The notes beneath the pieces were generated by a model. The model was not told the origin of the DNA and made no database searches. It saw only the letters and a program-made list of their open reading frames with translations. Shown in pieces: positions 13,437-63,050 of a stretch of 64,000 nucleotides of DNA (its first letter is position 1; every line of letters begins with the position of its first letter). Source of the stretch: Chara braunii. Its lineage: Eukaryota; Plantae; Charophyceae. The stretch spans positions 5,185,085 through 5,249,084 of the forward strand of contig BFEA01000029.1 of assembly GCA_003427395.1 (NCBI GenBank), written 5' to 3'. Made by a program: the position numbers and the translations under genes.

Positions 13437-13957
13437 TGGGAATGAACTTGGGCCTGGTATGCAGGCCGATACTTTCACGAATTATTTGGCCTGAGAGGCT
13501 GGCCTGCGCGCACGTTTTTTGATAACTGTCCGGAAGTATGATCTCATGGCACTCTCGACAGTTGGGATGAACCAGGGCCTGGTATGCAGACCGATACTTT
13601 CACGGATTATATGGCCTGAGGAGCAGGCCTGCTCACACGTTTCTTGATAACTGTCTGGAGGTACGATCTGATTCCACTCTCGACAGTTTGGATGAACCTG
13701 GGCCTGGTATGCAGGCCGATACTTTCATGAATCATTTGGCCTGAGAGGCTGGCCTGCACGCACGTTTCTTGATAACTATCCGGAAGTACGATCTGATGGC
13801 ACTCTCGATAGTTGGGATGAACCTGGGCCTGGTATGCGGGCCGAGACTTTCGCAAATTGTTTGACCTGAGAGGCAGGGCTGAGCATACGTTTCTTGATAA
13901 GTGTCTGGAGGTGCTGTCTGATGGCACTCTCGACCGTTAAAATGAACTTAGGCCTGA
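13437..13957. repeat. ~125-bp tandem array (~4 units) in the LTR U3 (copy at ~31912-32432)
   Basis: gatgaacc.gggcctggtatgc recurs at ~13440, 13565, 13690, 13815, and partially at 13940. Confidence 0.9.
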
Positions 13958-14187
13958 CGCTCAAGCAGAGGTCTCCGAGGATTTTTTCGAAATTGTCGAA
14001 GGTTATGTGATGCGGCTCATATCAGTTATCATGTACCTGAGCCTGGTGTACAGGCCGATGCATCCAATAATTTTGTTGTTATTATCTGTCTGAGGTCGCA
14101 CTCACGAAAGCTTGGGTAAGGAGGCTATTGGTTGGTGGAGAAGGAGGAACTGGGGATTGATCACGGGGAAGGATGGGAGGAAAAAGG

Positions 14188-14194
14188 TATAAAA
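14188..14194 (+). promoter_or_regulatory. Putative LTR TATA box (copy at 32666-32672)
   Basis: TATAAAA conserved in both LTRs, followed ~150 bp later by a (GA)n tract. Confidence 0.5.
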
Positions 14195-14337
14195 GAGAGG
14201 AAGTGGGATAGATTTAGAGAGGAGGCGCACAGGAGAAGGGGCAGGCACGAAGCGCACGCACAGACTAGTGTTCCGCGCTCGTAGCGAACTGCGTAGCGCT
14301 GCACCCGATCTCTAGAGGGAGAGAGGGAGAGAGAGCC

Positions 14338-14339
<2 letters not shown>

Positions 14340-14398
<59 letters not shown>

Positions 14399-14505
14399 AG
14401 AAGTACGGCCATAGCCAGAGAGAGGGAGAGAAAGAGAGGGAGAGACAGAGAGATAGGACGTACGGCCATAGCCAGAGAGAGAGCGGAGAGAGAGACAGAG
14501 AGAGT
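14340..14505. repeat. (GA)n microsatellite in the LTR (copy at ~32790-32905)
   Basis: Long AG dinucleotide run. Confidence 0.95.
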
Positions 14506-14524
14506 GAAGTGCTGCCCTCTGTTC

Positions 14525-15380
14525 CCCGTGAGTGCTTCGCGCCCCCTTAACCGAGCACCACAGATATGACCAAGTGATATTGTCGGTTCTCCGTGGAGCG
14601 CTTCACGCTCTCTGTACATGTGCAATACGTGCTACCAAGTGCAGATGTTGATGACCGAGGGATATTGTCTGCTCTCTGTGGAGCGCTTCAAGCTCTCCGT
14701 ACCTGCGCCATCCGCGCGACCAAGAGCTGATGCTGATATCCGCCCGTCGTGAGCGCTTCATGCTCTCCCTACCAAGCTCCATACTTGCGACCAGGTGATA
14801 TTGGTTGTTCTCCGTGGAGCGCTTCACGCTCCCTGTACCTGCGCCATACGCGCGACCAAGAGCTAATGCTGATTTCTGTTCGTTGTGAGCGCTTCACGCT
14901 CTCTGTACCTGTGCCATACGTGCGACCAAGTGTTGATGCTGATTTCCGTTTGTTGGGAGCGCTTTACGCTCTCCTGATCGAGCTCCACACGTGCGACCTG
15001 GTGATATTGTCTGTTCTCCGTGGAGCGCTTCACGCTCTCTGTACCTGCGTCGCACGTGCGACCACGAGCTGATACTGATTTTCGTTCGTGGTGAGCGCTT
15101 CACGCTCTCCTTGTCAAGCATCATACGAGCGACCACGGGATGTTCTCTGTCCTCCGTGAGCGCTTCACGCTCTCGGTACCTGCGTCATATGCACGACCAG
15201 GAGCCGATCGTCATGCGAACGACCGAGTGCTGATTTCGGTTTAGTGTGAGCGCCCTTCGCTCTTTGAACCTGTGCCATACGCACGGTCAAGTATTGTTCA
15301 CTGTCCCTGAGAGCGTTCGCGCTTTCTGCACATGTACGAGCAAGAGTCGTCCGCGCTCCTCACTGAGCTCCCTTCGAGTG
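14525..15380 (+). repeat. Minisatellite of ~12 units (65-90 bp), each with palindromic core GAGCG-CTTCA-CGCTC (copy at 33476-34075)
   Basis: Core seen near 14530, 14596, 14681, 14751, 14817, 14887, 14958, 15023, 15093, 15158, 15248 and 15312. Confidence 0.9.
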
Positions 15381-16049
15381 ACCGAGGGTTGTTCGCCTTT
15401 CAGAAGACGACTTCTCTCTTCCTGTACCATACTCAGGACCAGAAAGGGTCTTCGCAGCTTCGGGAGGTTTTTACCGGCGCTGGACCATTCTATCGTCCTT
15501 TTTTTGTTCTGTTTTAATCAGCTCCCCATTCGAATCTGTTTGGTGGCGTTCGACTGTGACTAGGCTATTCTGCATTTTCTTTCAGCTCACTATCCAAGTC
15601 TTTTTGCCACGGCTCGACCGCGGCTGGTTTATTCGCTTGCTTTTCTCAGAAGTCTGTTCGGTTCGCAGAAAAGACCTCGGGATTCGCTCTGTTGAGACCA
15701 AGCTCTTCAGTTTTTTCTTTCATCCTCAAAGACCGTTGTCTTCTCCTGATCACCAGCGTGAGGCTGTCAGCCATTCCATCGGCGCTCCCTCCTAGGGGGC
15801 GGTAGGTCGACAGGTGGACGGAAGCAAATGCGAACTAGAGAAAGGGATGAGTGAGAGAGAGAGAGAGAGAGTAAAGAAAGGTGAGAGAAGAAGAGAGGGG
15901 GGGAAGAGAGCTGCCGCTTGCGAACGTCTGTGGTTTCTCAGGAGAAGTAGAAAGAGAGAAGCTCTCAGAGGGAGAGGGAACGCAAGTTGAGGAGGCTACT
16001 TCGACGGGACCCCTCCATGAGCGTGCTGGGATGAGCTGGTCGCCATCTA

Positions 16050-16470
16050 TAGCTCGTACTTTGGTAACTTCAGTCCCCTCATTGCTCTTTGGCTTTACAG
16101 CTTGCCGAATATATAGTTGCTCTTTGGTTCCGAACTTGTCAAGGCTCTTTGCTTGTTGATCTTGTTGTCGTCTCCAGCTCGTTGTTATCTGTGTACTTTG
16201 GTAACTTTGTTTCCCCATTGCTCTTTGGCTCTACAGGTTGCTGAACATGTAGTTGCTCTTTGGTTCCGAACTTGTCGAGGCTCTTTGCTTGCTAAGCTTG
16301 TCGCCGTCTCAAGCTCGTTGTTATTTGTGTACTTTGGTGACTTTGTTTCCCCCTTGCTCTTTGGCTCTACAACTTGCTGAACATGTAGTTGCTCTTTGGT
16401 TCCGAACTTGTAGAGGCTCTTGGTCCCACAACTTGCTGAGCTCGTGGTCGCCTCGAGCTCGTCACTGTAC
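16050..16470. repeat. 136-bp tandem array in the LTR U5 (copy at ~34735-35290 has one extra unit)
   Basis: ttgctctttggttccgaacttg recurs every 136 bp (16117, 16253, 16389 in the 5' LTR; 34802, 34938, 35074, 35210 in the 3' LTR). Confidence 0.9.
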
Positions 16471-17199
16471 GTGTCCCCTGATCTCAATTAAGTCAATTCC
16501 TTGATTTCACGTGGCTCTTTGGACTTGCCGCCGTCGCAAGCTCGTTTGTTATCCTTGTTCCCTACCCTCAGTTAAGCAAGTTCTTTGTGTTTACGTTGCT
16601 CTTTGAGCACAGATCACATACCGCGAGCTCAACAAGCTCAGCAAGTCCTTCGACTTTGCGATTGCTGGCTGGCCGTCCTTTCTAACACGTTGACTCCACT
16701 AACACTGTTGACAACTCTCGAGCTTGTCGACCAAGCTCGTTGATTTTACCAGCAATATTCACAGCTCGCCGAGGTTGTCATTACTCCTTAGGTGTTACGG
16801 GCGAGGGTTACAGCTCGCTGAGCCGGGCGGTCGGTAAAAGGGCGATTTCCCAGCTCGTCGCATCTTGAGTTAGCTGGTTCTCAGTTGATATTCCCGGGGC
16901 GAGGAACGGTTCGGTGCCTGTGACCCGGTACCCCCCCCCCCGTTCTCGGGGGCGGAACGAACTCGACACCGGTAAGCCGCGGAAAGGAAAGCTTAGCCGT
17001 CGGACAAAAGCTAATGGGAAATACGTAAGACGCCGGGTCATTCAAAAGCTCTTATCTGCGCCCCCGGTAGAGGCCACAAAGCCACTAACTTGCTCCCTCG
17101 CCTGGGATAGAGCGTGGCCATCGAGTAGAAGGAGAAAGGGGGGGTCCTGAGAAGGCGAGACGGGAAGGCTGACTGGTCAGAGGGACAACCCTGACAAAG

Positions 17200-17216
17200 T
17201 GGCGCCGTTGCCGGGG
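17200..17216 (+). promoter_or_regulatory. Primer-binding site complementary to the tRNA-Asp 3' end
   Basis: tggcgccgttgccgggg 3 nt after the LTR end; this PBS type is also used by plant Athila elements. Confidence 0.92.
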
Positions 17217-17717
17217 TTGAGCATTTCTCCCGCGGCCTCGGCCGGCTCAGCAGCTACGGGGTAAGGGAGGACCAGCGTGACAGGCAGCGGTAGGGTGAGT
17301 TTGAAGTGTTCTGCAAATTTTCGGCATCAAGTCCTTCGGCACGAGTCTTCAAGGTAGTCCCCAACGGATTCTCCACGGTGATCACGGTTCTTCTCGAGCG
17401 GCATCGCCGAGGGGTTTATTGGGGAGGGTTTGTTTGTCGGGTGCGAGGAGTTTTGGGTGTTGGGTTCGTCTCCTTGGCTTTTGTAGGTCTGCTCCGGCCC
17501 GCTTGCCATCTCGGCTCCCACTTCTGTCCTTCGAGGAGTAAAGCAGGTCATTTCCGTTTTTTGTGTGCTTGGTTTTTTGCGCATGTTTATTTCTGAAAAT
17601 TTAAAAATTAAGGGGGAGCACAGTTTGCTTGAGGGGTCTGAATTAGGGTGAAGAACAACGCAAGGGTGGGAAGAAGAACAGTCCGAGAAAACAGTGTAAG
17701 GGGGTCTGCTCGAGGGG

Positions 17718-17771
<54 letters not shown>

Positions 17772-18808
17772 GGGTCCGAGGGGGTCCGGTAGCGCTGTCT
17801 ATTTGGGACCCAAGGGGGTCGCCGAGTATTCTTGACCCGCACGGGTTGTGGAGGGCACCTACCCGGGGGCAAAGTCCCGCACGAGAGAGTGTGTCTAGAG
17901 AGGGGTTAGGGGCTTCGGTTCTCGACCCGCAAGGGCTGACGATGGTTCCAACTACCGCAAGGGAGCGGGACTCTCAAACGGGACCGGTTCGGGACTTGGG
18001 GGAGAGGAGAGTGGTGTTACGGGTACCGGGGCGAGGGGGAGAGAGAGACACACCTACCCGTCTTAGCAAGGGCATTAGAGAGGAAGGGGGTACTTGGGGG
18101 ACCTTGGACGAGGGATCGGAGGCCGAATCCTGGGTGGACCGGTGACTAGCCGATTTCTCGGACTCGGACCTGGGGGACTATTGGGATTATGATAATGAGT
18201 ATTGAAGACACGAGGTACGTATGCTTGTCAACCCAACCTGAGAGCCTCTTCCTAAAACTCCGCTTTACCCACCCCATTTTTTTCTGATTTCCCGATATTC
18301 CCGTGATTCCAAGAGAGAAAAGAGGCAGCGGGAGGCGGAAAAGGACGAAGGGAACAAAGTGCGAAGAGTTCACGATGAGGAGAATGGGGGGGGAGTAGAT
18401 AGACTAGTGATTTCTGATAAATAGGTGGATCTTGTCCTGGGACCCGGGTAATTCCACGCTTGAGGTGGGCCGAGTAGAGGCGTGGTACCGGATAGGCTAA
18501 CTTAGGATTAGAGGTCGGTTCAGTGGGGGACATAGGAGCCGGGTGTGTGACTTCGGTCCGACTCCGGGGAGGGGGTTGTCACCCTTCCTTGGGGATAACC
18601 TGTGTCCGCGGCTAGTCTCTAGGCTGGGAGTGGGGGGAAGTCTCTCAGCGGGGGAGGACAAGAAGGTAGCCGAGTGAGACGGCGTTCCTTCTCTGGTCCA
18701 TTTGCTCCTTCTGAGCTCACAGGCTTCTTCTCCTTGCGGGATAGAGGTGGTCTCTCGAGTAGCTAAAAAAAAATAGGGACTTAGGGAATCTTCCTTTTAT
18801 TATATTGC

Positions 18809-19169
18809 ATGAGTTTGGAAGCCGTTCCGGAGTGGATTAACGTGTGTACGTACGGAAGTGTTGACGTGTGGTGTTTACTTCTTCCGGCTATGGATGGGTG
18901 ACTTTGATGTGGGTGACTATGTAGAGGAGGAACAAGATCAAGGAGAGGACTTCCTTCGTGGGTGGGAAGAGGCGATAGGCCACTCTCGTGGTTCGCGGGA
19001 GGAATTGAGGGGTTATGGATGCAAGTATTTTTACTCCCTTGGATACCGAACCTACCCCAGAGGTGGTCGCCCGGCGCTGGTAATTCCGGACGCTTATCTC
19101 GATGGATCAGATGAATGGAAAGTGTTAGTGGGGATTGTGGAGAGAGTGGTGAAGGCGATGAATCCATGA
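18809..19169 (+). pseudogene. Accessory ORF A (~119 aa, family I), one 1-nt frameshift
   Basis: ATG 18809 MSLEAVPEWINV…VDVWC; an extra T near 18875 shifts into YFFRLWMGDFDV…AMNP*. Aligns end-to-end with ORF B. Confidence 0.75.
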
Positions 19170-19531
19170 GCTTGAGGCCTTTGGAGTTTCAACCTGCAGG
19201 AATTAGTGTAGGAGATCGAGGCGGAGTAGAGGTGTGGTGCTATACCTTGTACTGGTGGACCGGCCACTTCGACATAGCCTTGTACGTAGAAGAGGGTGTT
19301 GATAGAGAGGCATGATACTTGGATAGCTGGGAGGAAGCGGTCGGTCATGCACAACTCGAGAGACAACTGCTGGGGGCTTACGAGATTAACTACTTCTACT
19401 CGTTGGGGTGTAGGACGTATTCACGAGGGGGCAGGCCTGTTCCTACTATATCGGAAACCTTCTTAGACGGATCGGACGGGTGGAGAGCACTAGTTCAAAT
19501 CATAGAGGAGATAATCCAAGGGGATGGTTAG
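19166..19531 (+). pseudogene. Accessory ORF B (~121 aa, family I), one internal stop
   Basis: ATG overlaps the ORF A stop (ATGA). The frame continues through TGA 19313-19315 to …EIIQGDG*. Confidence 0.8.
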
Positions 19532-20258
19532 GATTATCGAGGGTACTGAAGAAGAAGGGGCTCTAATAGAGAAAGCAGATTTAAGCAAAGTCAGGGAGTG
19601 CTTTAGCGTCCCTTTAGATCACCGCACCGAGAGGTATTTAGCCGGCCGGGAGAGGGGATTGGAGCTAGAACGAGGGGTTTTCCTTTGGGCTCGTTTCGCA
19701 GTAGGGACTTGGGAAGGGGACAGGTGGTCCCGGAACAGGCCCCATAACGGGAAGAGACCCAGGCGAACGGTGATCCGTGCGGAAGGAACTGTCTACTTAA
19801 GTAAGGAGGTCTGGGTCGATTACGTCACTCACTTGGTCCTGGGTTGATACCGTGCGGATCATTGGGAGGCACGAGCGGGTCCGATTTTGAGGCAGATCTT
19901 TGAGGCGGAGCCCCTTAGACACTGCCCACCAGTTGAGGTAAGGGTGACCTGCGCGCAAGACGAAGAGTACCCCCGCGCCGCAGGGTGCATCAGAGTCATA
20001 TTCCTGTCATTCGTTTTTCAAAGAGTGAGCGGAAAGGAGGAGCGATACGAGAGGGTTGTGCGGTCCATAGTGCGAGAAAGGGGGTGGCAGCTCTCTGTTA
20101 GGTCGCTCCATTGGTACTACACCTATTGTGTGGATAACCCGGTACCATACGGGATCAAGGCATGTAGGATTCATGCGGGGATCTTCAGGGAGTCTACCCG
20201 GGACCGCGAGGGAGGAAGGGACTACGGATACCAAAGAGTCTTCGGGGTACCACAGTGA
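19524..20258 (+). pseudogene. Accessory ORF C (~244 aa, family II), one internal stop
   Basis: Track ORFs 19524-19847 and 19887-20258 are in the same frame across TGA 19845-19847; colinear with ORF F. Confidence 0.78.
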
Positions 20259-20271
20259 ATGTTCTAAATGA

Positions 20272-20924
20272 ATGGTGTTCCATGATAGAGAGCAGGGATG
20301 CTTCTTAGAGTCCTCTTTAGAGGACCGTGAGGCCCTTAGGCTGGTCCCTAGCAACGGGGAAGTCCCTGATTGGGAAAGGATAGAAGGGGGGAGGTCCACG
20401 GTTGGTGGGGGATTCGTGTGGGTAGAATCCAAAGAAATAGAAGGCCAAGGTCTTGGGCGAAGTCTTGAAGTAACCGCGGTTATTTTCATAGCACCGGAGG
20501 CTTGGACAAAGCTTGTAGTACCCCTAATTCTGGGACAAGGGGGTGGGCTGGAAAAATTGTTGCGAGAGGCGAGAGAGGTAGAGGGGAATGGATGAGTAGG
20601 GTTAGAGAGCGATTTGCATTCGTGTCCGTGGAAAGGGAGAGGTTCACGAGGGAAAGAGAGCTTTCGAGGTCAAGTTACCCATTAACTGTGAGGGTGCCGT
20701 CTTACGTATTCCCTAGAGCAAACGAGGGAAAGATAGTGTGTCCTTCAGGGACCTGTGGATACTGTATACGCACTGCATCGATCAGGGTATTCCGCCGCAA
20801 AAAACTCTGGGGTGTTTTCAGGAGATTAGGATCTCTTGAAAAACCCTTCACTCTCTCTCCTGAAAAATATCGCAGGTGGGTCTTTAGAACGACGATAGCA
20901 GATGGTGAAGTTTATGCTCAGTGA
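20272..20924 (+). CDS. Accessory ORF D/E (family II): two ATGA-coupled ORFs (20272-20595, 20592-20924) or one frameshifted ORF
   Basis: The D part has GFVWV…EVTAVIFIAPEAWTKLVVPLILGQ; the E part has VPSYVFPR resembling the C-terminal half of ORF C. Confidence 0.65.
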
Positions 20925-21630
20925 AAACGGGGTGGTGGAATCGATAGAGGCCAGTGACACCGAGAAGGTTTTAGTCCCGGGGGACCCTCAAGTGATTCCT
21001 TATTGGATGAGCGTTGAGAAAGGGGGATTGCTCAGAGAAGGGGCCTACGTGTGGGTTCGAGCTCGAAGGCTCACTTGGAAGGAAGGTGTGGAAAGAGGAG
21101 GTCCCCCCGACCTCGGTCGCTTCCTGGAGATTCGGGCTACCATTTTTTTCAACGAAGAGGTGTGGACCGAAGTCTGGAGAGGATTGGTGACCGGGCAACT
21201 TACGCATTTTGAATACCGAGAATCCGCGAGGCTGTTGGCAAACAATCTAGTGTTAGCTGACTACGAGGAAGGAACTTTCGAGTCGTGGTCACTAGTGTCC
21301 TTCGCCGAGCCAGGAGAGGTCCCTCGCGCGTCCGGGGTCCTCCACCCTAACCTACCCCAGTTCGTGGTCAGTTCGTTCCTAAGAGATTCAGAGGAGAAAG
21401 TAGTAGCAGTGCTTAGAGCGGCTTAAGAATCCGGGGTGCGGGCTAGGGGTTTGTTCTGGCTTTATACTCGGTGCGTGGACGCGGGAGTTCCCCCAAGAAG
21501 TGAGTTGTCCGCCATATTCGGGAGGTTGAGAGAGTTTGAGGGGCTCCGATCCCTCGTCGCGGACGTTCCGTACGCCCGCCTCTTCGGAGAAGAGCAGGTG
21601 TCTAACCGACGGGGTTTCGAGGGTCGATGA
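20902..21630 (+). pseudogene. Accessory ORF F (~242 aa, family II), one internal stop
   Basis: 20902-21426 and 21436-21630 are in frame across TAA 21424-21426; motifs GAYVWV, ATIFFNEEVW, LFWLYTRCVD, YARLFG. Confidence 0.78.
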
Positions 21631-22385
21631 TAAGGGGGATACCGAGAACTCTCTAGGCATCCATAAAACCCGTGGAGGATACCGGGGAGGTTGTCAGTGT
21701 CACTCTGCCTAGTGTCAGATTGACTGAGCCGACTAGGACTCTCTTGCGAGAAGAAGGGGAGATCCGGCGCGGTAAGGCTTTCATACGATTTGCAGTGAGT
21801 CGCGAAGGGAAGGTAGTAGTTGGAGAAGCCCGAATCTTCCTTTCGAAGAAGGGCCTTGTTGAGATAGCGCATAGCTTACGGATTGGGCAGGACCCTCTCT
21901 GGGACGCTCGAGCCGTGAGAGGCCGGCTAGGAGAGTTAGTAGAGGAATTGAGGCCTCACGAAGGGTGCGACGAGGAATGTCTAGTGACCTACGAGGGTTG
22001 GGAAGAAATACCGCGGTTCCTTTCCAGTGAGCCGGTAGAGGTCCCCCGTTTCATTTTTGAACGGGTTTACCCCTCCGAGGCTGTTAAGAGGGCGGTAGAA
22101 AGAACGGTTTCCATCCTAAGTCAGTTCAGGTTCACGGGATCGGATCTCCACATCTTGTTAACTTGGTGTTTTCGAGATCCTTATAAAGACGATTGATAGA
22201 CTCTAGAGGACCTGGGTTACGCCTTCGAAGGTTAGGGTCGATATGCGAGGGAGTCTAAGATATCGTGGAGATACTTAGGTAAGATCTGCGAGGGAGAGCT
22301 AGCGAGGTTGGACCCCTCAGACTTGATTCGGATAGCAATTGCGTGTCGTCGACGGAAGTTAGGGGATGATCGAGCCGGACCTTGA
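21627..22385 (+). pseudogene. Accessory ORF G (family II), several internal stops
   Basis: ATG 21627 overlaps the F stop (ATGA) and is in frame with track ORF 21672-22196. The read-through tail LGKICEGELARLDPSDLIRIAIA resembles the ORF I tail. Confidence 0.7.
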
Positions 22386-22554
22386 GGAGCTTGTGGGGCT
22401 GGATAGAGTAAGGGAAGAAGTTCACCGGATCCTTGCTCTGTGCTGGGAGGAAGAAAGGAGGGCTAGGCCGGGGTCCTTAGCCAGGATCAAGCTACTTGAG
22501 ACAACTGCAATCGATATCCTAGACGAGGTAACGATAGATCTTCTCACGCAGTGA
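22366..22554 (+). CDS. Small accessory ORF (62 aa), or frameshifted tail of ORF G
   Basis: ATG start, same composition as neighbours, and fills the gap between G and H exactly. Confidence 0.45.
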   Translation: MIEPDLEELVGLDRVREEVHRILALCWEEERRARPGSLARIKLLETTAIDILDEVTIDLLTQ

Positions 22555-22558
22555 GGGG

Positions 22559-23035
22559 ATGAGAGCTTCGTTTGTGTCCAATAGGATCCGTTGGGGATTA
22601 GAGACCTACGAGGACGGTAGCGAAGTTAGGGTTGAAGGGAGTGCAGAGCTTAACCCGGAATTGGGAGAGGACCGGGTAGTCCGCGCCGAGACAAAATTTC
22701 TAGTGGAGGTCCGACGACTGGCCTTATGGAAAAAAAGAAGCTGGACCACGCTAGCTACCTTTTCAGTCCACATTAGAGACGCGAGTGGCGTGAGGTTCTC
22801 GAGGACTTGGAGGGAGCCTTTGTTGGAAGTAGAAAGAAAATTCGAGGAGGACTCTAGGTATCTAGGAACGCCACTGACATCTAGGGCACACCTTGTGGAG
22901 ACCCGATTTTGGTATAGGTCGGGAGATTACGAAGAGGCTTTGCGCCGAACACTGGAAGAGGACGAAGAGACTGGACACGCCAGGTGCGAGGACTCGCTGG
23001 CAGCGGCCGCCGCAAGGTTGACCGACGTAAGGTGA
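22559..23035 (+). CDS. Accessory ORF H (158 aa, intact, unknown function)
   Basis: ATG 4 nt after the previous stop; uninterrupted; no visible similarity to families I or II. Confidence 0.65.
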   Translation: MRASFVSNRIRWGLETYEDGSEVRVEGSAELNPELGEDRVVRAETKFLVEVRRLALWKKRSWTTLATFSVHIRDASGVRFSRTWREPLLEVERKFEEDSRYLGTPLTSRAHLVETRFWYRSGDYEEALRRTLEEDEETGHARCEDSLAAAAARLTDVR

Positions 23036-23043
23036 AGACCCGG

Positions 23044-23939
23044 ATGATTCGATACGAGAAGGGGGCCCCGTTGGTACCATAGAGAGGGCTTGGACGTGGG
23101 GAGGAAGATATGGAGTAAATCTCCCGAGAGTTAGAGGGGATTGATGTGACTACCGAGTTCTTCGAAATTTACGAGCAGGAGACAGTGGTCAGGTTTTCAG
23201 TGGCGTCCGAGGGGAACAGTTGCACGAGAAAGGCGGAAATTTTTTTGTCCCCTGACGCCCGGCTAATCTTCGCAACTGAATTGGCGGAAGGGAAAGATCC
23301 TCTAGGCATCGCCAATAGGGCCCTAGAACGAGTAAGGAGATTGAGAGGGGGTGGCACGGAGAGCCCCGTGATTGACAAGGTAGAGTACCGAGGGAGGACA
23401 GAAGTTCCAAGGGCAGCCCATGGGAGAACTTGGGATATCCCTACCTGGGCCTATCGACTGCTCTATGCTGACAACGAGACCGTGAGGAGAGTTTTGTTGA
23501 GGGGTCAGGTGATAGAAAAATTCCCGTTGGGTGAAGAAGGGGGACACGAGTTATTCACCTAGTGTTGGGAGTCGAGAGAAGACACCGACTTCGAGTGGTG
23601 GGCGCGCGTTGGGGAGTTCATCAAGCCCCTGTTCTCCGGACAAGCTGGTGATGTGGAGTCGTGGACAGGGATTTGATTAGGAGGTGTGCGCAAGAAGGGA
23701 TTAGGGGCATCTCGAACCTGGAGATCGCGAATCTTGCATTGGCTGCTAGCGAGGAGAAGAAACTGAGGGATTCTTGGTGGACGGTGACCAGCGAGGAGTC
23801 GGAGGGAGAGGGTGCTGACGAGGATTCTAGTGAGGAGAAGGGGGGATTGGAGGAAGAAGAGAATTCAGAAGATACCGCAGACAGTAGTGAGAGGGACGAG
23901 CCGGAAGGTAACGCGGACGATAGTGAGGGAGGCGACTAG
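23044..23939 (+). pseudogene. Accessory ORF I (family II) with acidic C-terminal tail; stops and frameshifts
   Basis: Starts MIR like ORF G. VRFSVASEG…KAEIFLSPDARLIFATELAEGKDPL aligns to G IRFAVSREG…EARIFLSKKGLVEIAHSLRIGQDPL, and ELFT*CW to LLTWCF. Ends in a D/E/S-rich tail. Confidence 0.72.
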
Positions 23940-23958
23940 AAATTGCCAATAAGGGTGC

Positions 23959-26388
23959 ATGGAGAGTGAAGTAGAAGCTGGTCTCTCTAGTCCGCCGGAA
24001 ACCACTGAAAGAAGGGGGATAGTGAAGAGTCCCGAGTTGGGGGCCAGTCTAAGTAGGGTAGTGGAAGAAATGACAGAGGGAGCAGAGACGCTAGATAGGG
24101 CCGAGGGGGGTCCGGAAATGGCTTCGGGAGAGAGAGAGGCCTCGGAGCGGCAAAGAGCTGGCACGGAAGTGCGAGTGCACAGGGATGTGGGGCCGCAGGT
24201 GCCGGTAAACGAAGGGGTCACTGAAGCTGCAAGAGGCATTCCGGTGGAATCCCGGTGGGCGGACCTAATGGATGCGGAAGCAAGGTTAGAGGAAGCATGG
24301 GAATTTCCTAGAGATAGACAGGGGTATCGACCACTTAGGAGGGAGGAAGAGGAGTGTCAGGACAGGAGAGACTTAAGAGAAGGGAGGTCAACAGAAGCCG
24401 GCGGTAGGCCGCGGAGATGGGTCGAAAGGGTCCCGGAGGCCGTCACCGGTGAGAGGCAGGCTTTGGTGGGGCCAAGAACTGGCGCGGAAATGCGAATGTC
24501 TGTGCGAGAAGGGGGGATCGAGAGCTCGAGGGGCCTTCCTATAGAGTCTCGGTAGGCGGATTTACCGGACGCAAGAATGGGAGAAACTCTAGAATTTCCA
24601 AGAGATAGAGTAGGGTACCGGCCACCCAGGAGAGAAGAGGAAGGGGGACCGAGTAGAAGGGACCTTAGAGACGAGGGGCCGACGGAGGCAGGTAGTAGGC
24701 CACGAAGATGGGCCGTAAGAGAAACGGATGCTCCCTGGGTTCCCGGCGAGATAACATGCGTAAATCACGGGGTGGAGGCTTGGAGGAGCTTTAGGGGGCA
24801 GGGCCACGCTCGGTGGGAGACGGATTGGCCGGATGAGCGGGGCCGCTACGGGGAAGACCCCTGGGAACCGCCTAGACCCCGGGGCCGGGTGGAGGAGACG
24901 GATCCCTCGTGGTACAAGCCGTACGATCCGGCAATCGATGGGCCAATGGAAGGTCCCTATTTTCGCCGATACGACGACCGACGAGTCCCCTATTACGACG
25001 TCAACCCATTTTTCTTCGACGGACGGGATGTGACTGGGTTCGTGGAGAAATGGGAGAGTTATGCTTACCGTAAAAAATTCTTCGAAAGAGAGTGGATAAA
25101 CTATTTTATCCAGCACTCGGACCCCGAGTTAGACCCCGCGATTCGGGCTATCTACCCCTCAGACGGACGATGGAGGACCTTCAGGGTGACCCTATTGCAG
25201 ATTTTCGCCTGTGATGACCTGATCCCGACCGTGGAGGGCTTGCGACGAATTACAAAAGGGGAACGAGAGAGCTTGGTAGCCTTCACCCGTAGGTTCAAGC
25301 GCCTGTCCCAAGCCCTAGTGGATAGGGGTATGCTGTCTGAAGTAGATAGGTGCGTGATGTTCATGCTGCACCTACCCGAGGAAAAGAGGAAAGAGGTTCT
25401 TGAGACGGCCTCGAGGGATTCTGCCAATTTCGAGAAAGTCGCGGAGGTGGTTTTCACGGGGGGAGGAGTAGATGTGAGGGAACACATGAAAGAGACCTTG
25501 GACATGGCACTCTGCAACATGCGAGGCACGCGGAACGATGGTCCCAGGGGAAACGATAGACTGCCCCCGGGTCCACCTGGTCCCCGGTGGGGAGAACGGC
25601 CAACCGGATGGAGGAACGAATCGAGTGGCCAAGGAAGTTGGAGGAACGACAGGGAGATGAGGGGGAATCGTGGTTCTGATTGGGGGGGTTCCCATTGGAA
25701 GGATGCTAGGGATGGAAGGTGGGGAGACGCCCCTCAAGCAAGGGCTTCTGGGCCGCGATCGGAGGTTAGGGCGCCACCACCGCCAGCACCTCCACCACCG
25801 GCTCCGCCGGCGCCTATAGCGGCAGCCACGCAAGGGGGTCCACGTCCCAACAACCCACAAGCCCGAAGCGGGTGTGTCTACTGCAATGAAGAAAATCACA
25901 TTAAAAGGGACTGCCCTTATCTCACGGAGGCCTTAAGGTTGGGAGTGGTCAAGCTGAATAAGAACAAGTGGGTTGTGTGGGGGGACAACGGAGAGGCGGT
26001 CTCCTTTTACCCATCAATGAAGGTGAACGTGGACAAGAGGGTGGCCCTCCAGGAGGCTAGGCTGGGGAAGAAACCGAAAATCGGGAGCTCCTCCAACATA
26101 GCTCATATCCAAATGACGGAGTCACCAGGGGGGGTGTCCATTAGGGAACCCTAGGTGTCAAGCATTAAGTTCATATAAACCCAGCCCGAGGAAGAGAGGT
26201 CTTGCCTAAGGGTGAGAACGCACGTTGGGACTGAGACGTCCGAGAGCCAAGCGAGCGTGACGGAAGGCACGGAAGTAAGGAGCGGCGACAATGACCAACC
26301 GATGACCGATGCAAAAGCGGTGGAGGAAAAGAAGGAAAAACCCACCTCACCCAAATCGCCTAAAAAGAGGGGATAAAAAAAAATTGAA
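23959..26388 (+). pseudogene. gag: gag (with long N-terminal extension and CCHC zinc knuckle), internal stops
   Basis: 23959, 24577 and 26389 share one frame. Capsid-like FDGRDVTGFVEKWE…KGERESLVAFTRRF; knuckle CVYCNEENHIKRDC. Confidence 0.9.
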
Positions 26389-29300
26389 ATGAAGTGCACT
26401 CTGGATGAGATAGACACGGTAGCACCTCTTAGGAGGACCCTGATGCAGCCTATGCAGTGCACACTTTTGGAATATCTAGCCGCCAGCAAAAGCGTCAGGG
26501 AAGAACTCCTAAGCATCACGAGGAAGGTAAGAGTCCCGCTCGCAGGGGGGCCCAAGGTGCCGGTGGAAGGTCCCGCCAAGGAAGAAGTACAGGCCTCCCG
26601 CATTACCATGAAGGAGCTACCTGCCAACTTCTTCTCGGGAGAAGAGGCCGAGAAATTCTATGTGTTAGGTAGTGGCCAGCTCCAGGCAGTGGTAAGTGGG
26701 AAGAAAATGAGGGCTCTAGTGGACAATGGGTCCGAGTCTACGGTGTGTAGGGAATAGATCGAGGGGTATCGATGTCGATGGTAGTGGCGGATAACAAGCT
26801 GCAACCGGCAGAAGGGGTGTGTCATAACCCCGTGATTGAGGTCGCTGGTATAGAGGCCATGGTCCCGATCTTTTCGGTAAAAGAGTGCTCCTCCGAATTG
26901 ATCCTCGGAAGGACCTGGCTGAGCGCAGTACACACGACCACGGTTGATTTGTCGGATGGAAGTCAGACCCCCTCGATCCAAAGTCCTGATGGAATCCGAG
27001 TGGTCCTAAAGACCGTAGACGCGCAAGATGAACGTAACCGGACCAGCATCGCTAGATGCAAGGGGAGTCCGTCGAGGGTGTGCCGAGTCTGTCTGAAGGA
27101 GGTGCCCTTGACGGATATGGGACCCAAGGGAGACCAATTGGAGGTCGAGGACGTGGGGGATAGGATTGTAATTAACGGTATGGGTTACGAGAAGGAGGAT
27201 GAGGAGGAGGAGTTCGGTGGATGCGTGAGTATGTCTTTTTTGGAGGTATCCCCCTAGCCGGCGGAATAAAGAAGCACAAAATCGTGGCGGAGAAAGTAAA
27301 ACCCGCCGAGGTCAGCCGAGATAGAACGGGGTTAGCTACAATATCGGAGGAGGAGATAGTTGATATCATCCGGAAAAGGAAAGAGACAGAAGGGCAAAGG
27401 ATAACGGCCGATAGATTGGCCAAAATGGATATAGGAGATGGGAACCTCACGGAGGAAGAGAAGGGATTCATAGCAATGACCCTCAGGGGGTGCGATAAGG
27501 CCATCGCCCTTAATGACTCCGAGAGGGGGAGGATCGACCCAAGGTACGCTAAGCCGGCCCGGATCCACACGGTCCCGCACGTGCCTTGGAAGGATAGGCC
27601 CCAATGGAAGTACGCTCAAAAGGAGAAGGAGGAGATAGTGACTTTTATCAAGGAAAAAATTAGAACGTTCGTTGCGGAACCTTGCGAGAGTGCCTACTCC
27701 AATAAGTGGTTCTTTCTAAGAAAGGGGGGTAGCAACAAACTGTGATGGATTCAAAACCTCCAGAGGACCAATGCGGTCACCATAAGGGACGTGGGATCTA
27801 TACCCGAGGCCGACTTGCTAGCGGAAGGGTCGGAAGGTCGCTCGATATACTCGATCTGCGATCTCTTCTCTGGGTATGACGAAATCCCCCTAGACTATCG
27901 TGATAGGCATATGACCGCCATGCACACGCCGCTAGGGTTGGTCCAAATGATGGTGGTACCAATGGGCTGGACGAATGGGGTAGCGGTGTTCCAACGGGCC
28001 ATGATTGCAGTCCTCAAGGAATTCATACCGGATAAGGTAGAGGTCTTCCTAGATGACCTCCCGATAAAAGGACCGGTCGAGCGAGACGAGACGGAAGTTT
28101 TTCCCGGAGTGAGGAAGTTCGTGGTGGACCACATGAGCGACGTCAGGGACGTCCTTGTGAAACTGGACGATGCAAATCTCACGGTAAGCGGGACTAAGAG
28201 TCGCTGGGGCATGTCCTCCATCAAGATATTAGGGTTCATTTATTGTAAGGATGGGCGGAGGTCCGACCCCGAGAAATTGTTAAAATTAATGACCTGGCCG
28301 TCACCACTCAAATCCATAACAGAGGTCCGACAATTTCTAGGGGTTGTGGGCTACTGGAGAATCTTCATAAAGGCCTATGATGAGAAGGTGGAGCCCCTTA
28401 GAAGACTCCTTCGGAAATTGGAAGGATGGGTTTGGGGGGAAGCACAGGAAGCGGCCATGGAAGCTTTGAAGGTGGAGTTCCGCAAAGGTGGAGAGGTCCT
28501 AGGAGTTTCGTTCTTCGAAGACGAGGAGAGTCGCCCTTTCATAGTGTCCACGGACGCTGGACCTCATTCGGTGAGAGTCCTCCTGTCACAAAAGGACGGA
28601 GAGGGGAAAGAGAGACCGTTGCGATTTGAAAGCCGGACCTTGAACCACGCCGCTTGAACCACGCCGAGAGAAATTATAGCCAATTCAAAAAGGAGGTGTT
28701 AGGGGTATTGCATTGCCTAAAGGCCTTCCGTCATTATCTATACTGACGACGATTTCTCCTAAGGGTGGACCCGACGGCAGTGGCCGCGGTCCTCCAAAAA
28801 GATTTCTCGCTGACCGATCCTACCATCGCACGCTGGATGATTCATATTAGGCTTTACGACTATAGGGTCGAGAGGATATCAGGGACCAAGAGCCAGGTCG
28901 TGGACGGATTGTCCCGGCTTCCTATTCGTGAGGAGGACCTACCTAGGCTTAAGGAGGAAGAAGTGACAATGGCCAAGGAGGAGATAATGAAAGTCGCCGC
29001 TAATAGGGCACGAATAGCGGGGAGCAGCCGAGGGGAAGAAGGGGGCCCAATGACTTTTCTCACAAATCTCTAGGACGGGAAGTACCGGGACATAGGACCG
29101 TACCTGGCCGGTAGGGAAACATGGACTGAAAGAATCCAGCGAGAGGCGCTGGGGTATTGCTTGCGGGAAGGCCATCTCTTCAAAAGGCCCACCAAGTTTG
29201 CGATACCCATGAGGGTACTGTGCGATCCAGAGGAGAGAAGGGCGGTCATAGAGGAGTTACACGATGGGGTCGTTGGAGGTCATAGGGGGGTGAAGGGTAC

Positions 29301-30647
29301 TTTCGATAAAGTCCGTAGGCTTTATTGGTGGGACGGGCGATACACGAAAGTGGAAAAGTACTGTTCAACATGTGAGGCTTGCCAGAAGAGGGCTACGGTT
29401 CGATACAAGGAACCCTTGGTTCCGTCGCTTCCCACGGTTCCGGGAGAGAAGGTCCATGTTGACTTAGTAACCATGCCAAAGGGGATCGGCGGACTTCGGT
29501 ATATAATTAACACGCGGGATGACCTCACGGGATTCGTAGAGCCAAAGGCCGTTAAGAAGAAGACGGCAGAGGAGGTAAGTGAATTTCTCCTTGAATATAT
29601 CGCGCGGTACGGATGTGTTGGGAGAATAGTCATGGATAGGGGCGCAGAGTTCTTGAGCCAAAAGATCAAGGCATTATTGGAAAAGGCAGGGATCGGGGTG
29701 ACCTATACGATCGCTTATCACCCCCAGAGCAATGCACCGATAGAAATGGGTCACCAGACGCGCTTGTGGACGCTCTGGCGAAATGGTGCAAAGGTCGCGC
29801 GGAACAGTGGCTGAGATATTTGCGGTACGCGGTTTGGGCCGATAATATCACAGTCAAGTCCAGTACGGGATACCCTCCTTACACCCTTTGGTTCGGTAGG
29901 CATTGTCCCCTTCCCATCGAATTCCACATCGACACTCGGACGAGTGTCTCATGGAAAATCAACATGACCCGGAATGAACTGTTGGAGGCACGGATCCAAC
30001 AAATAGCTGAGAATTTGGATACCGGTGTAACCAAAGCGGGAGAGAACATCGAGAGAGAGAAGGTGAAAGGAAAAGATAGGTGGGACAAAAATCTGCGGGT
30101 CTGAAAGGCGCCGATAGGGGTTGACGACCTAGTGCTGATGCATGATTCGTCACTAGAAAATACCTGGAGCAGGAAATTGGCAAACCGATGGATGGGGCCG
30201 TATAAGGTCCTAAAGAGATTGGATGGGGGGGCTTACATGCTCGCGGAATTAGATGGGAGTAGGCTACGGGATCCTGTCGCAGGCGCTCGTCTCAAAATCT
30301 TTCGATCACGAGAGACCCTTGAGGAAGAGTCGAGACAGAAAGGAAAAGAAGCTATTGACACACAGGTGAGCATAACCGACGAAAAAGGGGAGACCTCCAA
30401 ACAAGAAGACTCTTCTCGACCCCCAAGGAAAGTGTATAAGGTTCGGAAAACTGCCCTACCAAAGACCCCTAGGAAGAACAAACGACTGAGGGAGGATGAC
30501 GGAGATACTGACCGATTAAGGAAACGCAGGTTGAACGAAATGAGGAATGCGTCAAGAAAGGCCCTGAGACTCAAACGTGAGAGAGAGGAGAGAAAACGGA
30601 AGAGAGAGAGGCGCGAGAAGAGGATGAGGAGACGGAGACGGGCGTAA
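26389..30647 (+). pseudogene. pol: pol: protease, RT, RNase H, integrase (stops and frameshifts)
   Basis: PR ALVDNGSE…LILGRTWL; RT DLFSGYD…PMGWTN…VFLDDLPIKG; RH FIVSTDAG…ERNYSQFKKE; INT H-x6-H…CSTC, VHVDLV, MDRGAEF, YHPQSNAPIE, GPY motif. A 14-bp duplication at 28639-28666 frameshifts RH. Confidence 0.96.
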
Positions 30648-31028: not shown

Positions 31029-32814
31029 TGTCGGGCAGCTGCCTAGCAGCCGAGGGTATTTCCTGGAAAAAAAAAAAAAAGAACTCGGTCGTTGTTGCCT
31101 AATTTTGCATGGTTTGGACGCATGATTGTCTGAGACTGATGGGTTTCAAGGGACTTGGGGTGTCTAGAGGCCCCGTGCTAACGATTGGGAAAGGGCAAGA
31201 GAGGGGGGCAATGTAGGTCGTGAGAGGAAGCGGGCGGGCCGCAAGAATCCGAGTGTTTGGGGGCTTGGTCCGAAGTCCGACAGGAAGGAGACAGATTCTG
31301 TGCGGTGGCTTGAAGAACCGAAGGGCAGAGGGATAAAGTGAAGGACTTAAGAAGTGACTAAGGATGGCGATGTGAATACCGCACGGTATCTATGTGACCC
31401 GGCGTCTACCCAAGGGTGGAACTAGGAGATCCGGGCGGCCTACATTGAAAGGCCAAGAACCCCTAGCAGGAGGCACGGAATCAGGTCACCCCGGGGAGAT
31501 GACGAACTTGACTCTGGGCGCACCCGGCTTGGTACGGACTAAGGGCGATGGAGGCGACCAATTTCGGAAGAGCTCGGGCCGAAGCGGTGATGGGGACGAG
31601 TCACACTTACGGGAGCGGGAGTTTCGAATGGCAGGCTGCTTCAACAAAGAAAGGAATGACGGTAGGGGTTTATAATTGGAATCTGTTAAAGCTACGGAGG
31701 AGGGCAGGCGAAGGAAGCTGGGGGGTTGGACCCCGATAAAGAGGGGGAGATATGTCAAGCAAGTGAGGGTCTGGGGTATGGCGGAAGAAAAGGGAAATGA
31801 GAAAGCGGGGGGGTTCTATTCATAGCCACAACNGATCGGAGGTGCCAAGAGAAAGGGTGTTCATAGATAGGTAACCAACTTGGCGGTGGCTGCAACCGAT
31901 GTCTGCATCAGTGGGAATGAACTTGGGCCTGGTATGCAGGCCGATACTTTCACGAATTATTTGGCCTGAGAGGCTGGCCTGCGCGCACGTTTTTTGATAA
32001 CTGTCCGGAAGTACGATCTGATGGCACTCTCGACAGTTGGGATGAACCAGGGCCTGGTATGCAGACCGATACTTTCACGAATTATTTGGCTTGAGGAGCA
32101 GACCTGCTCACACATTTCTTGATAACTGTCTGGAGGTACGATCTGATGCCACTCTCGACAGTTTGGATGAACCGGGGCCTGGTATGCAGGCCGATACTTT
32201 CACGGATCATTTCGCCTGAGAGGCTGGCCTGCGCGCACGTTTCTTGATAACTGTCCGGAAGTACGATCTGATGGCACTCTAGATAGTTGAGATGAACCTG
32301 GGCCTGGTATGCGTGTCGAGACTTTCGCAGATTGTTTGACCTGAGAGGCAGGGCCAAGCATACGTTTCTTGATAATTGTCTGGAGGTGCTGTCTAATGGC
32401 ACTCTCGACCGTTAAAATGAACTTAGGCCTGACGCTAAGGCAGAGGCGTCCAAGGATTTTTTCGAAATTGTCGAAGGTTGTTATCTGATGCGGCTCATAT
32501 CAGTCATCATGTACCTGAGCCTGGTGCACAGGCCAATGCATCCAATAATTTTGTTGTTATTATCTGTCCGAGGTCGCACTCACGAAAGCTTGGGTCAAGA
32601 GGCTATTGATTGGTGGAGAAGGAGGAATTGGGGATCGATCACGGGGAAGGATGGGAGGAAAAAGGTATAAAAGAGAGGAAGTGGGACATATTTAGAGAGG
32701 AGGCGCACGGGAGAAGGGGCACGCACGAAGCGCACGCACAGACTAGTGTTCCGCGCTCGTAGCGAACTGCGTAGCGCTGCGCCCGATCTTCAGAGAGAGA
32801 GAGGGAGAGGGAGC

Positions 32815-32905
<91 letters not shown>

Positions 32906-35900: not shown

Positions 35901-36006
35901 TGCTCCCTCGCCTGGGATAGAGTGTGGCCATCGAGTAGAAGGAGAAGGGGGGGGGGCTGAGAAGGCGAGACAGGAAGGCTGACTGGTCAGAGGGACAACC
36001 CCGACA
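31029..36006 (+). repeat. 3' LTR (includes an N gap)
   Basis: Begins tgtcgggcagctgcctagcagccgaggg, ends gggacaaccccgaca, followed by the CCGG TSD. Confidence 0.96.
32906..33475. other. Assembly gap (N run)
   Basis: Ns following the (GA)n tract. Confidence 0.99.
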
Positions 36007-36045
36007 CCGGTCTCCAGCACGTGCTGCTCCCCACGAAGACTGGAG

Positions 36046-62375: not shown

Positions 62376-62499
62376 CCTATTCCTAATCAACTTAACCTCT
62401 ACCTGTCTCATCGTCCTACCTAAGGTTCTCTTTCTACACCTTGTTTCGTTATGCCCCCTTTGGTCATGACCTTTGGTTGGTGAATGAGATCGAGGGAAA

Positions 62500-63050
62500 A
62501 AAAGGGTGTGAGGCGGTTGGATATGGGGGATGGGTAAAAAAAATGGAGGAGGGAGATGGTGTGAGGTGGTTGGCTATGGCGAATGGGTGAAGGAGATGGC
62601 GGAGGAAGATGGCGTGAGGTGGTTGACCATGGTGGATGAGAGAAGAAGATGGAGGAGGAAGATGGTGCGAGGTGGTTGGTTATGGTGGATGGGTGAAGAA
62701 GATGGAGGAGAAAGATGGTGTGAGGTGGTTGACTATGGTGGATGGGTGAAGGAGATGGAGGAGGAAGATGGTGTGAGGTGGTTGGCTATGGTGGATGGGT
62801 GAAGGAGGTGGAGGAGGAAGATGGTGTGAGGTGGTTNGCTATGGAGGATGGGTGAAGAAGATGAAGGAGGAAGATGGTGTGAGGTGTTTGACTATAGTGG
62901 ATGGTTGAAGAAAATAGAAGAGGAAGATGGTGTGAGGTGGTTGTTCATGGTGGATGGATGAAGAAGATAGAGGAGGGACATGATGGGAGGTGGTTGAGCA
63001 TGGTGGATGGAAGAAGAAGATGGAGGAGGAAGATGGTGCGAGGTGTTCGA
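62500..63050. repeat. Purine-rich minisatellite, ~52-bp unit, ~10 copies
   Basis: gaggaagatggtgtgaggtggttg.ctatggtggatgggtgaag repeated. Confidence 0.9.

Follow-up and report, generated by a model that had tools for sequence, protein, structure and literature searches.

AUG depletion across tightly packed accessory ORFs upstream of gag suggests polycistronic translation by scanning in a Ty3/gypsy retrotransposon of Chara braunii

How could a eukaryotic ribosome reach gag when nine further ORFs, abutting or overlapping one another, precede it? The question is raised by a decayed copy of a 23.5-kb Ty3/gypsy LTR retrotransposon of Chara braunii, located in a window of 64,000 nucleotides (assembly GCA_003427395.1, contig BFEA01000029.1, positions 5,185,085 to 5,249,084), from whose first letter all features are numbered (Table 1). 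Its LTRs form a direct pair with TG...CA ends and 4-nt CCGG flanks (target-site duplication), and a PBS is present. Pfam recovered a gag CCHC motif followed by the order PR-RT-RH-IN, with CCHC and protease below the curated cut-off; in the Chara gene models P0013 and P0016 gag continues into pol in a single frame. The accessory ORFs tile 18809-23939 upstream of gag, cover 5115 of 5150 nt and consist of two paralogue families (A, orf1-2; B, orf3-6 and orf9) and two singletons (orf7 and orf8). The original prediction held that the expression of these ORFs and gag needs reinitiation, splicing or internal promoters. Our analysis agrees that an unusual route is required, but this list omits the one favoured by the sequence, i.e., scanning through ORFs that have been cleared of AUG.

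Table 1. Features of the Chara braunii element, in window coordinates
Feature	Position	Strand	Remarks
5' LTR	12553..17196	+	4.6 kb, TG...CA; blastn vs 3' LTR 94-95.5%
TATAAA	14188		inside 5' LTR; motif list
PBS, tRNA-Asp/Asn type	17200..17216	+	sequence
Internal leader	17217..18808	+	7 ATGs; contig depth at 18600-18790 3-4x that of next bin
GTGAGT donor-like site	17295		leader; 95 nt past PBS start
(GA)n	about 17717-17770		leader
Polypyrimidine+AG acceptor-like sites	18722 and 18744		leader
orf1	18809..19169	+	about 120 codons, family A; 50% identical to orf2 over 86 aa
orf2	19166..19531	+	121 codons, family A; AUGA-overlap start; one in-frame stop in studied copy
orf3	19524..20267	+	about 245 codons, family B; paralogue of orf5 (E 1.6e-15) and orf6
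orf4	20272..20924	+	family B; tblastn of orf5; P0006, P0007, P0008
orf5	20902..21630	+	242 codons, family B; P0013 83% over 239 aa, same start
orf6	21627..22385	+	252 codons, family B; AUGA-overlap start; four in-frame stops in studied copy
orf7	22366..22554	+	62 codons, no family
orf8	22559..23035	+	158 codons, no clear family
orf9	23044..23939	+	about 290 codons, family B, acidic tail; frameshifted in studied copy
gag (CCHC) + pol (PR-RT-RH-IN)	23959..30647	+	Pfam; decayed
3' LTR	31029..36006	+	N gap within; blastn match to 5' LTR

All ten junctions listed in the original prediction are present in the studied copy: 4-nt ATGA overlaps at 19166, 20592 and 21627, overlaps of 8, 23 and 20 nt at 19524, 20902 and 22366, and gaps of 13, 4, 8 and 19 nt before 20272, 22559, 23044 and 23959, respectively. 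Comparison with other copies, for which we used reads, protein models and the short loci L001 and L002, shows five of them to be kept elsewhere, whereas 20592 is not a junction of the family and the 13-nt gap is copy-specific. A frameshift accounts for the ATGA at 20592, an artefact that three other copies read through: in P0006 and P0007 a single frame joins the ORF starting at 20272 to the one at 20592 and has a residue other than Met where the second was supposed to start, and P0008 passes the point of the frame change before being spliced away. A one-base length difference just upstream of 20592 is found in 22-29% of contig depth in all four runs; the remaining depth lacks it, and some other copies may resemble the studied one at this point. 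The stop that creates the 13-nt gap differs in 886/907 (run X1) and 918/918 (X4) of contig depth, and the following in-frame stop would leave 4 nt before 20272. At five of the nine remaining junctions both stop and start are kept in another copy, namely at 19166 (loose-end consensus of runs X1 and X3), at 22366, 22559 and 23044 (L002) and at 23959 (L001). The start alone is confirmed at three, 20272 (P0007/P0008), 20902 (P0013) and 21627 (P0012), and the junction at 19524 was not found in another copy among the reads, protein models and two loci. All nine lie between -23 and +19 nt; with a chance of 24% for an ATG in the 46-nt window of a given stop, based on the density of non-start ATGs, this arrangement has a P of about 2e-6. 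That the junctions are copy-specific frameshifts of one long ORF is true of 20592 and not of the others. A single long ORF split by frameshifts was rejected as a candidate, except for orf4 and orf9. The observation of the junctions is confirmed in part, and the interpretation given with it is partly supported: the accessory ORFs are indeed separate conserved cistrons in need of an unusual translation route.

The decay of the studied copy is evident in several ORFs, some of which exist only if its in-frame stops are read through. Orf1 is frameshifted near 18875, where indels and loose ends occur; the orf3 stop at 20256 and its internal stop are copy-specific; orf4, a single gene in other copies, carries a frameshift near 20580, which produces the false ATGA at 20592, and two further indels near 20740 and 20800. 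Almost none of the contig depth of other copies carries the in-frame stops at 19845, 21424 and 22194. In orf2, six of six listed RNA differences fall at codon position 3. The 3' part of orf6 is open in L002 (dN/dS 0.19) and its start Met is kept in P0012, orf7 preserves its start, length and stop position in L002 (dN/dS 0.14), and orf8 is preserved there as well (dN/dS 0.09; 76.5% in P0007). Orf9 is one ORF in other copies (P0001, P0003-5, P0014-16), with dN/dS of 0.11-0.30 in L001/L002. At the level of sequence comparison, these ratios (0.09-0.30) show orf6-9 to be under purifying selection. In addition, the paralogues have similar beginnings.

The selective loss of AUG affects every frame from orf2 up to the start of gag and spares orf1 and gag-pol. 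ATG is the lowest of the 64 triplets in 18809-23958 (39 vs 63.8 expected; from orf2 onward, 28 vs 55.5), its rank being 59/64 in gag and 32/64 in pol, and CAT on the same strand shows no depletion in the accessory array. Internal Met occupies 4/1662 accessory codons vs 53/2088 in gag-pol (P 9e-10); other copies give 5/2130 vs 41/1641 and 3/1465 vs 58/2553, counts that are not independent because the copies share ancestry. Out-of-frame ATGs number 25 vs 45.4 in codon shuffles, none of 2000 being equally low, compared to 56 vs 59.6 in gag-pol. The loss extends to codon choice: in orf2-9 the NAT:NAC ratio is 11:42 before G vs 50:58 before other bases (P 0.002), while the corresponding values in gag-pol are 40:47 and 76:85 (P 0.89). 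P0011, a distant Chara model in which the same domain is repeated, contains 24 Met in 619 residues, and the fold therefore tolerates Met. In orf1, 354 nt contain 10 internal ATGs, a density of 28 per kb compared to 4.2 per kb across orf2-9 (P 2e-5), and ATG density is normal again from gag, with a change point near 24053. L002 and the studied copy share no ATGs in the 1.1 kb upstream of the orf9 start other than the starts of orf7 and orf8. Twenty non-start ATGs persist in orf2-9 of the studied copy; those shared between copies are three out-of-frame ATGs in orf9, heading uORFs of 1-9 codons, and the single internal Met of orf5, common to P0002 and P0013. Overall, uORFs after non-start ATGs are not significantly short (median 8.5 vs 12, P 0.30). 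Such clearance shows scanning across the ORFs, and is compatible with subunits supplied from the cap as well as by termination.

We propose that the nine accessory ORFs and gag-pol are probably translated from one polycistronic RNA by scanning through the AUG-cleared ORFs (leaky scanning), with the orf1/orf2 stop-start as the probable point of entry. Each start would capture some of the 40S subunits scanning along the RNA and leave the others to continue; a capture of 10, 20 or 30% per start would leave 43, 17 or 6%, respectively, past eight starts to gag. Most starts seem weak: a purine at -3 together with G at +4 occurs at one of ten, and a pyrimidine at -3 at seven of ten (P 0.07, marginal). 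The shared GGGGATG/GGATG context of the original prediction is retained in part, as GGGG directly precedes ATG at three of ten starts (AGGGG; post-hoc P about 2e-5), whereas the GGATG at 20592 belongs to the artefact. L002 preserves the GGGG at 22366 and 22559 and lacks the GGATG context at 23044. Since orf1 holds 10 internal ATGs, plain scanning from a cap upstream of it fails, and another 26 ATGs separate the LTR TATA box from orf1. The AUG-richness of orf1 and the onset of depletion right at the orf1/orf2 AUGA make reinitiation likely there. Ribosomes would probably enter the cleared path by termination at the orf1 AUGA and resumed scanning, by short-uORF reinitiation, or from a nearby 5' end or splice, and the tight junctions would hold re-scanning ribosomes beside a start. 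A more tentative, though quite conceivable, extension is a ten-cistron operon, in which a single RNA would yield nine accessory proteins, five of them from one family expanded in tandem, and Gag-Pol, dosed by reinitiation after orf1 and then by leaking down 4.8 kb.

We consider it unlikely that translation is instead a serial termination-reinitiation relay, perhaps with an element-encoded factor as in CaMV, in which the clearance would serve ribosomes missing the adjacent start. The spacing of all nine junctions, the two true AUGA overlaps (19166 and 21627) and the onset of clearance exactly at the orf1/orf2 AUGA are in line with such a relay, and precedents are given by SART1, caliciviruses and CaMV in the available text of PMC5902531 and PMC10275272. 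Yet at three junctions the start precedes the end of the upstream stop by 8-23 nt, a relay alone does not predict the near-total loss of internal Met, and Pfam and PHROGs returned no TAV-like match among the accessory ORFs. The TURBS core of caliciviruses is UGGGA. This motif was found 30-90 nt upstream of none of the nine junctions (background 14%) and none of four in L001/L002, and RNA structure near the junction starts gave no z below -2.

A second, improbable alternative is that the ORFs, small groups of them and gag each have their own RNAs through alternative splicing or internal promoters, the junctions merely reflecting compact tandem duplication. The AUG-rich leader and orf1 need a bypass, and Gag is normally required in quantity. 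The leader also offers the donor-like GTGAGT, which is present as originally predicted, and acceptor-like sites. In contrast, RNA run X6 has reads in 30/30 bins with mean depths of 3.9 over the array vs 3.7 over gag, from 408 short reads at low depth and mostly from other copies. At this low power, it shows no splice joints and no start or end peaks across 17800-26300, a stretch beyond which the 17295 donor lies, and no step up in depth after 18744. Raw RNA runs X5 and X7 gave 4 and 0 reads, which is not evidence of silence. Moreover, AUG clearance within eight ORFs is unneeded on monocistronic RNAs, least of all at synonymous sites.

Very improbable, and already largely refuted, is the view that the array makes no separate proteins and stems from the decay of a single long ORF or from the capture of a prokaryotic operon that retained its overlaps. 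In its favour, the copy is decayed, 20592 is an artefact and ATGA overlaps are typical of bacterial operons. Against it, copies of 83.5-84.8% identity preserve stops and starts, one of them through another stop codon at the identical position, the purifying selection and the like beginnings of paralogues argue for separate proteins, GGAGG stands 4-20 nt upstream of none of nine starts (AGGAG, 1/9) and no relative was found in PHROGs (8 proteins) or viral contigs (orf9 and the open part of orf1).

The preferred reading, scanning through cleared ORFs, has its counterpart in RTBV and badnaviruses, whose ORFs I-II are AUG-cleared for leaky scanning over 900 nt (available text of PMC5902531). Similar to the Chara element, these are reverse-transcribing and carry accessory ORFs before a capsid-pol ORF, with tight junctions, weak starts (which the Chara starts seem to be as well) and ORFs without internal AUG (strongly but not completely cleared in orf2-9 of Chara), as described in the accessible parts of PMC5902531 and PMC4926197. 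There, two upstream ORFs span about 900 nt, compared to eight cleared ORFs over about 4.8 kb in the Chara element, which is moreover an integrating LTR element, has an uncleared first ORF and gave no evidence of a shunt structure (hairpin 18600-18830, z -1.48). The same depletion signature is carried by green-algal bicistrons, with ATG depletion before the downstream ORF, weak first starts and some stop-start overlaps; according to the available part of PMC11291117 these are bicistronic chlorophyte host genes with short 5' UTRs, whereas the Chara case comprises ten cistrons in a charophyte mobile element. CaMV TAV, calicivirus TURBS and SART1 UAAUG coupling likewise involve closely abutting or overlapping stops and starts, yet are described without systematic AUG clearance in the accessible text of PMC5902531; neither a TURBS core nor a TAV-like protein was found in the Chara element, and its array has the clearance.

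With Ogre/Tat elements it shares a large Ty3/gypsy organization, multi-kb LTRs and sense extra ORFs before gag. Ogre has one or two extra ORFs and Tat lineages have PMD/Tr28 domains (PMC6431247, PMC4408406, PMC7264820, as far as their available text goes), whereas the Chara element has nine ORFs in two paralogue families and two singletons, without significant Pfam match to PMD or Tr28 in ten accessory segments. No archaeal-type second RNase H was found, Pfam giving only RT_RNaseH families here, in a decayed copy, and in P0014. The tRNA-Asp/Asn PBS is a feature of Athila, and the Athila/FIDEL PBS has the same 13-17 nt (available parts of 10.64898/2026.03.20.713144 and PMC2844528). An Athila env-like ORF, which not every Athila has, was not found, no plus-strand frame of at least 70 codons lying between 30647 and the 3' LTR. 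The Drosophila MDG1 group (412, Mdg1) also has translated accessory ORFs before gag and an unspliced LTR-to-LTR RNA, translation and such an RNA being predicted in Chara; the accessible text of PMC11952523 describes two small ORFs, of about 110 and 70 aa, one of whose products is membrane-bound, vs nine of 62-290 aa in Chara, and no similarity between the two sets was found.

Searches for the function of the accessory proteins returned blanks, which does not show a new fold. Pfam gave no significant match in the ten accessory segments, and PHROGs (8 proteins) and PDB sequences gave none for the proteins. For orf5, the best Atlas score of a part was 0.80 (chance level), AlphaFold reached pLDDT of 35.7 and 56.1, the latter model had no Foldseek match at E<=0.001 in the viral and PDB sets, and the best VIA hit (chimallin, Z 5.1, rmsd 3.6, 89 aligned) was within noise. 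Viral contigs held no relative of orf9 or of the open part of orf1, and orf7 matched none of 1301 candidates among longer proteins. Relatives were detected only in Chara-type records. The five-paralogue expansion suggests an arms race with host silencing.

To our knowledge, most documented cases of scanning-based polycistronic translation in eukaryotes involve two or three ORFs. The mainly open-access literature surveyed contained no paper on a many-cistron LTR element or on this Chara family. If true, the ten-cistron case would extend the distance and number of starts that a 40S subunit can pass, with a scanned distance about five times that described for tungro- and badnaviruses. LTR retrotransposons would gain a retrovirus-like accessory arsenal upstream of gag, and the array would provide a natural model for expressing several genes together in plants and algae. 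The AUG-depletion test can be used as a screen of other large elements for hidden polycistrons. Existing Chara gene models splice these cistrons together into chimeric genes. As to compactness, leaky scanning does not demand tight spacing at all nine junctions in an element with 4.6-kb LTRs.

The junction array resides in an LTR retrotransposon of 23.5 kb, the parts of which are collected in the table below. Its target-site duplication comprises 4 nt instead of the 5 nt that plant gypsy elements usually show. The element belongs to a multi-copy family, with 4221-5382 contigs per run matching 18600-24300 at an identity of at least 80%, as counted in four runs of one sample that is possibly the source of the window itself; the copy in the window is decayed. 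All relatives of the accessory proteins that bear a name are Chara braunii gene models (8/10, 10/10 and 1/2 matches). The LTR carries repeat arrays of 125-nt and 136-nt units (13309-13983, 14575-15296, 15941-16512) and, downstream of its TATA box, a (GA)n tract; the N-terminal region of gag (~24200-24750) contains a tandem repeat, roughly 85-90 residues in size, that is also present in the gene models P0007 and P0008.

Features of the retrotransposon hosting the junction array
Feature	Position	Strand	Remark
Target-site duplication CCGG, 4 nt	12549-12552 and 36007-36010		Flanking sequence
5' LTR	12553-17196	+	94-95.5% identical to 3' LTR
PBS, tRNA-Asp/Asn type	from 17200
gag	start 23959	+
PR-RT-RH-IN	to ~30647	+
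3' LTR	31029-36006	+	94-95.5% identical to 5' LTR

The ten tight stop/start junctions of the original prediction are all present in the window, but two of them are corrected by other copies. At 20592, the ATGA is artefactual: among predicted gene models, P0006 and P0007 cross this position in one frame without a methionine, and P0008 crosses the frame change. In alignment with orf5, the ORF starting at 20272 covers the first half and the region of 20592 the second; a one-base length difference near 20592 occurs in 22-29% of contig depth, most depth being free of it, so that some other copies may be split here too. The 13-nt gap before 20272 is not a family feature either, since the stop creating it differs in nearly all contig depth. 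The ORF at 23044 and the frame ending at 23939 form a single gene (orf9) in other copies. After these corrections, nine accessory ORFs cover 5115 of 5150 nt, with junction spacings from -23 to +19 (chance P ~2e-6 for nine out of nine). Conservation across copies is partial: both codons are retained at five junctions and the start alone at three, and the junction at 19524 is not seen elsewhere. Identical spacing alone is no proof of selection on spacing, because indels are rare between the compared copies. AGGGG immediately precedes the ATG at three starts (19519-19526, 22361-22368, 22554-22561), two of which are kept in locus L002; a Shine-Dalgarno site would be spaced differently.

The decisive clue to the mode of expression is the clearance of AUGs. 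Within the array, ATG is the most depleted of the 64 triplets (39 observed versus 63.8 expected), a rank that it holds neither in gag or pol nor in the flanks or the entire LTR, and its density recovers at ~24053, slightly past the gag start. Internal methionines number 4 in 1662 accessory codons versus 53 in 2088 of gag-pol; other copies, related by shared ancestry and hence not independent, give 5/2130 versus 41/1641 and 3/1465 versus 58/2553. Protein composition is not the cause, since out-of-frame ATGs are lost as well (25 versus 45 in codon shuffles), synonymous choice is biased and a distant Chara model with three matches to the domain of orf3, 4, 5, 6 and 9, P0011 (CBR_g13079), is Met-rich (24/619). 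The bias concerns Asp, Tyr, His and Asn codons of orf2-9, with a T-ending to C-ending ratio of 11:42 before G versus 50:58 otherwise (P 0.002), and does not occur in gag-pol (P 0.89). CpG decay adds ATGs rather than removing them, in agreement with the absence from loci L001 and L002 of five of the eight non-start window ATGs checked (21937-23652). We infer that internal AUGs matter only to ribosomes scanning across the accessory ORFs. P0011 represents a distant gypsy family (RT region 47% identical) with its three domain matches ahead of gag-pol, and this Met-rich family may express its array differently.

We propose, as the probable arrangement, that a single RNA would carry the accessory ORFs and gag-pol and that leaky scanning would divide the ribosomes over orf2-9 and gag-pol, with likely entry at the orf1/orf2 stop-start. 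The original view that reinitiation, splicing or internal promoters are needed is thereby only partly supported, leaky scanning being likelier. A serial termination-reinitiation relay along the junctions, which would explain their tightness well, is rather unlikely, as the calicivirus-type UGGGA core is found at 0/9 junctions and a transactivator is not recognisable. Separate RNAs for the ORFs are more doubtful still, because they leave the AUG clearance unexplained.

The accessory ORFs are genes, and a non-functional or prokaryotic relic is very improbable. dN/dS amounts to 0.09-0.30 for orf6-9 and 0.19 for gag (against L001 and L002, with 84.8 and 83.5% DNA identity; orf1 and orf3 are without estimate). 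Fourteen of the 40 listed RNA-read differences (452 others) fall in accessory ORFs, 12 of them at codon position 3. Orf1 and orf2 are 50% identical, and orf3, 4, 5, 6 and 9 form a second paralogue family (23-32% identity). Sequence searches for a function were blank, as were fold searches on a low-confidence model.

With leaky scanning, the array would work like the pregenomic RNA of RTBV and badnaviruses, where two upstream ORFs are AUG-cleared over ~900 nt (PMC5902531, PMC4926197), and like green-algal bicistrons (PMC11291117), without being a member of either group. In the accessible portions of the literature, extra ORFs in LTR elements are mostly placed 3' of pol (review, PMC7264820), with upstream cases in Ogre (one or two; PMC6431247), Tat lineage IV (PMC4408406) and MDG1 elements of Drosophila (two, carried by an unspliced RNA; PMC11952523). 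A literature search, with most subscription papers outside its reach, returned no account of a nine-ORF array or of the Chara family.

Orf1 itself is AUG-rich (10 in 354 nt versus 20 in 4769 nt for orf2-9; of three checked, two are missing in some other copies and one is kept), and the stretch from the LTR TATA box to orf1 contains 26 ATGs. Scanning consequently seems to set out from the orf1/orf2 AUGA, where ribosomes might enter by reinitiating downstream of orf1 or of a short uORF, or via a nearby 5' end or splice. The working 5' leader may begin late in the LTR, as hinted by the last 800 nt of the latter (16386-17196), which hold one ATG, at 17014, missing from the 3' LTR. Just before orf1, over 18600-18790, contig depth reaches 3-4 times the value in the following bin, with position 18705 at ~6 times the array average (run X1). 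This segment is probably common to more copies or families; it holds polypyrimidine+AG sites (18722, 18744) and might serve as a splice acceptor or packaging signal. By the usual rule, most start contexts are weak, 1/10 having a purine at -3 and G at +4 (marginal, P 0.06-0.07). In orf9, three out-of-frame ATGs common to copies each head a uORF of 1-9 codons; in RTBV, according to the accessible text, a short uORF contained in ORF II did not block ORF III (PMC5902531).

The RNA sample comprised three raw oligo-dT runs (X5, X6, X7) and a contig run (X9). X6 yielded 408 reads of 16.7 million covering 30/30 bins, with mean depths of 3.9 (array) and 3.7 (gag), the depths summed per mate orientation being 42 and 81; X5 gave four reads, X7 none, and X9 contigs in 12/30 bins. 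As 384 of the 408 X6 reads are less than 95% identical, these derive from other copies. At this low depth, and over the mapped stretch 17800-26300, which starts downstream of the donor-like GTGAGT at 17295, X6 showed no splice joints and no start or end peaks. The reads fit a continuous low-level transcript, without being proof of one. Beyond the element, a purine-rich tract of GAG repeats precedes its pyrimidine-rich complement at 46490-47280, so that the two form many imperfect inverted repeats, and a tandem array with a period of 53 nt occupies 62442-63130.
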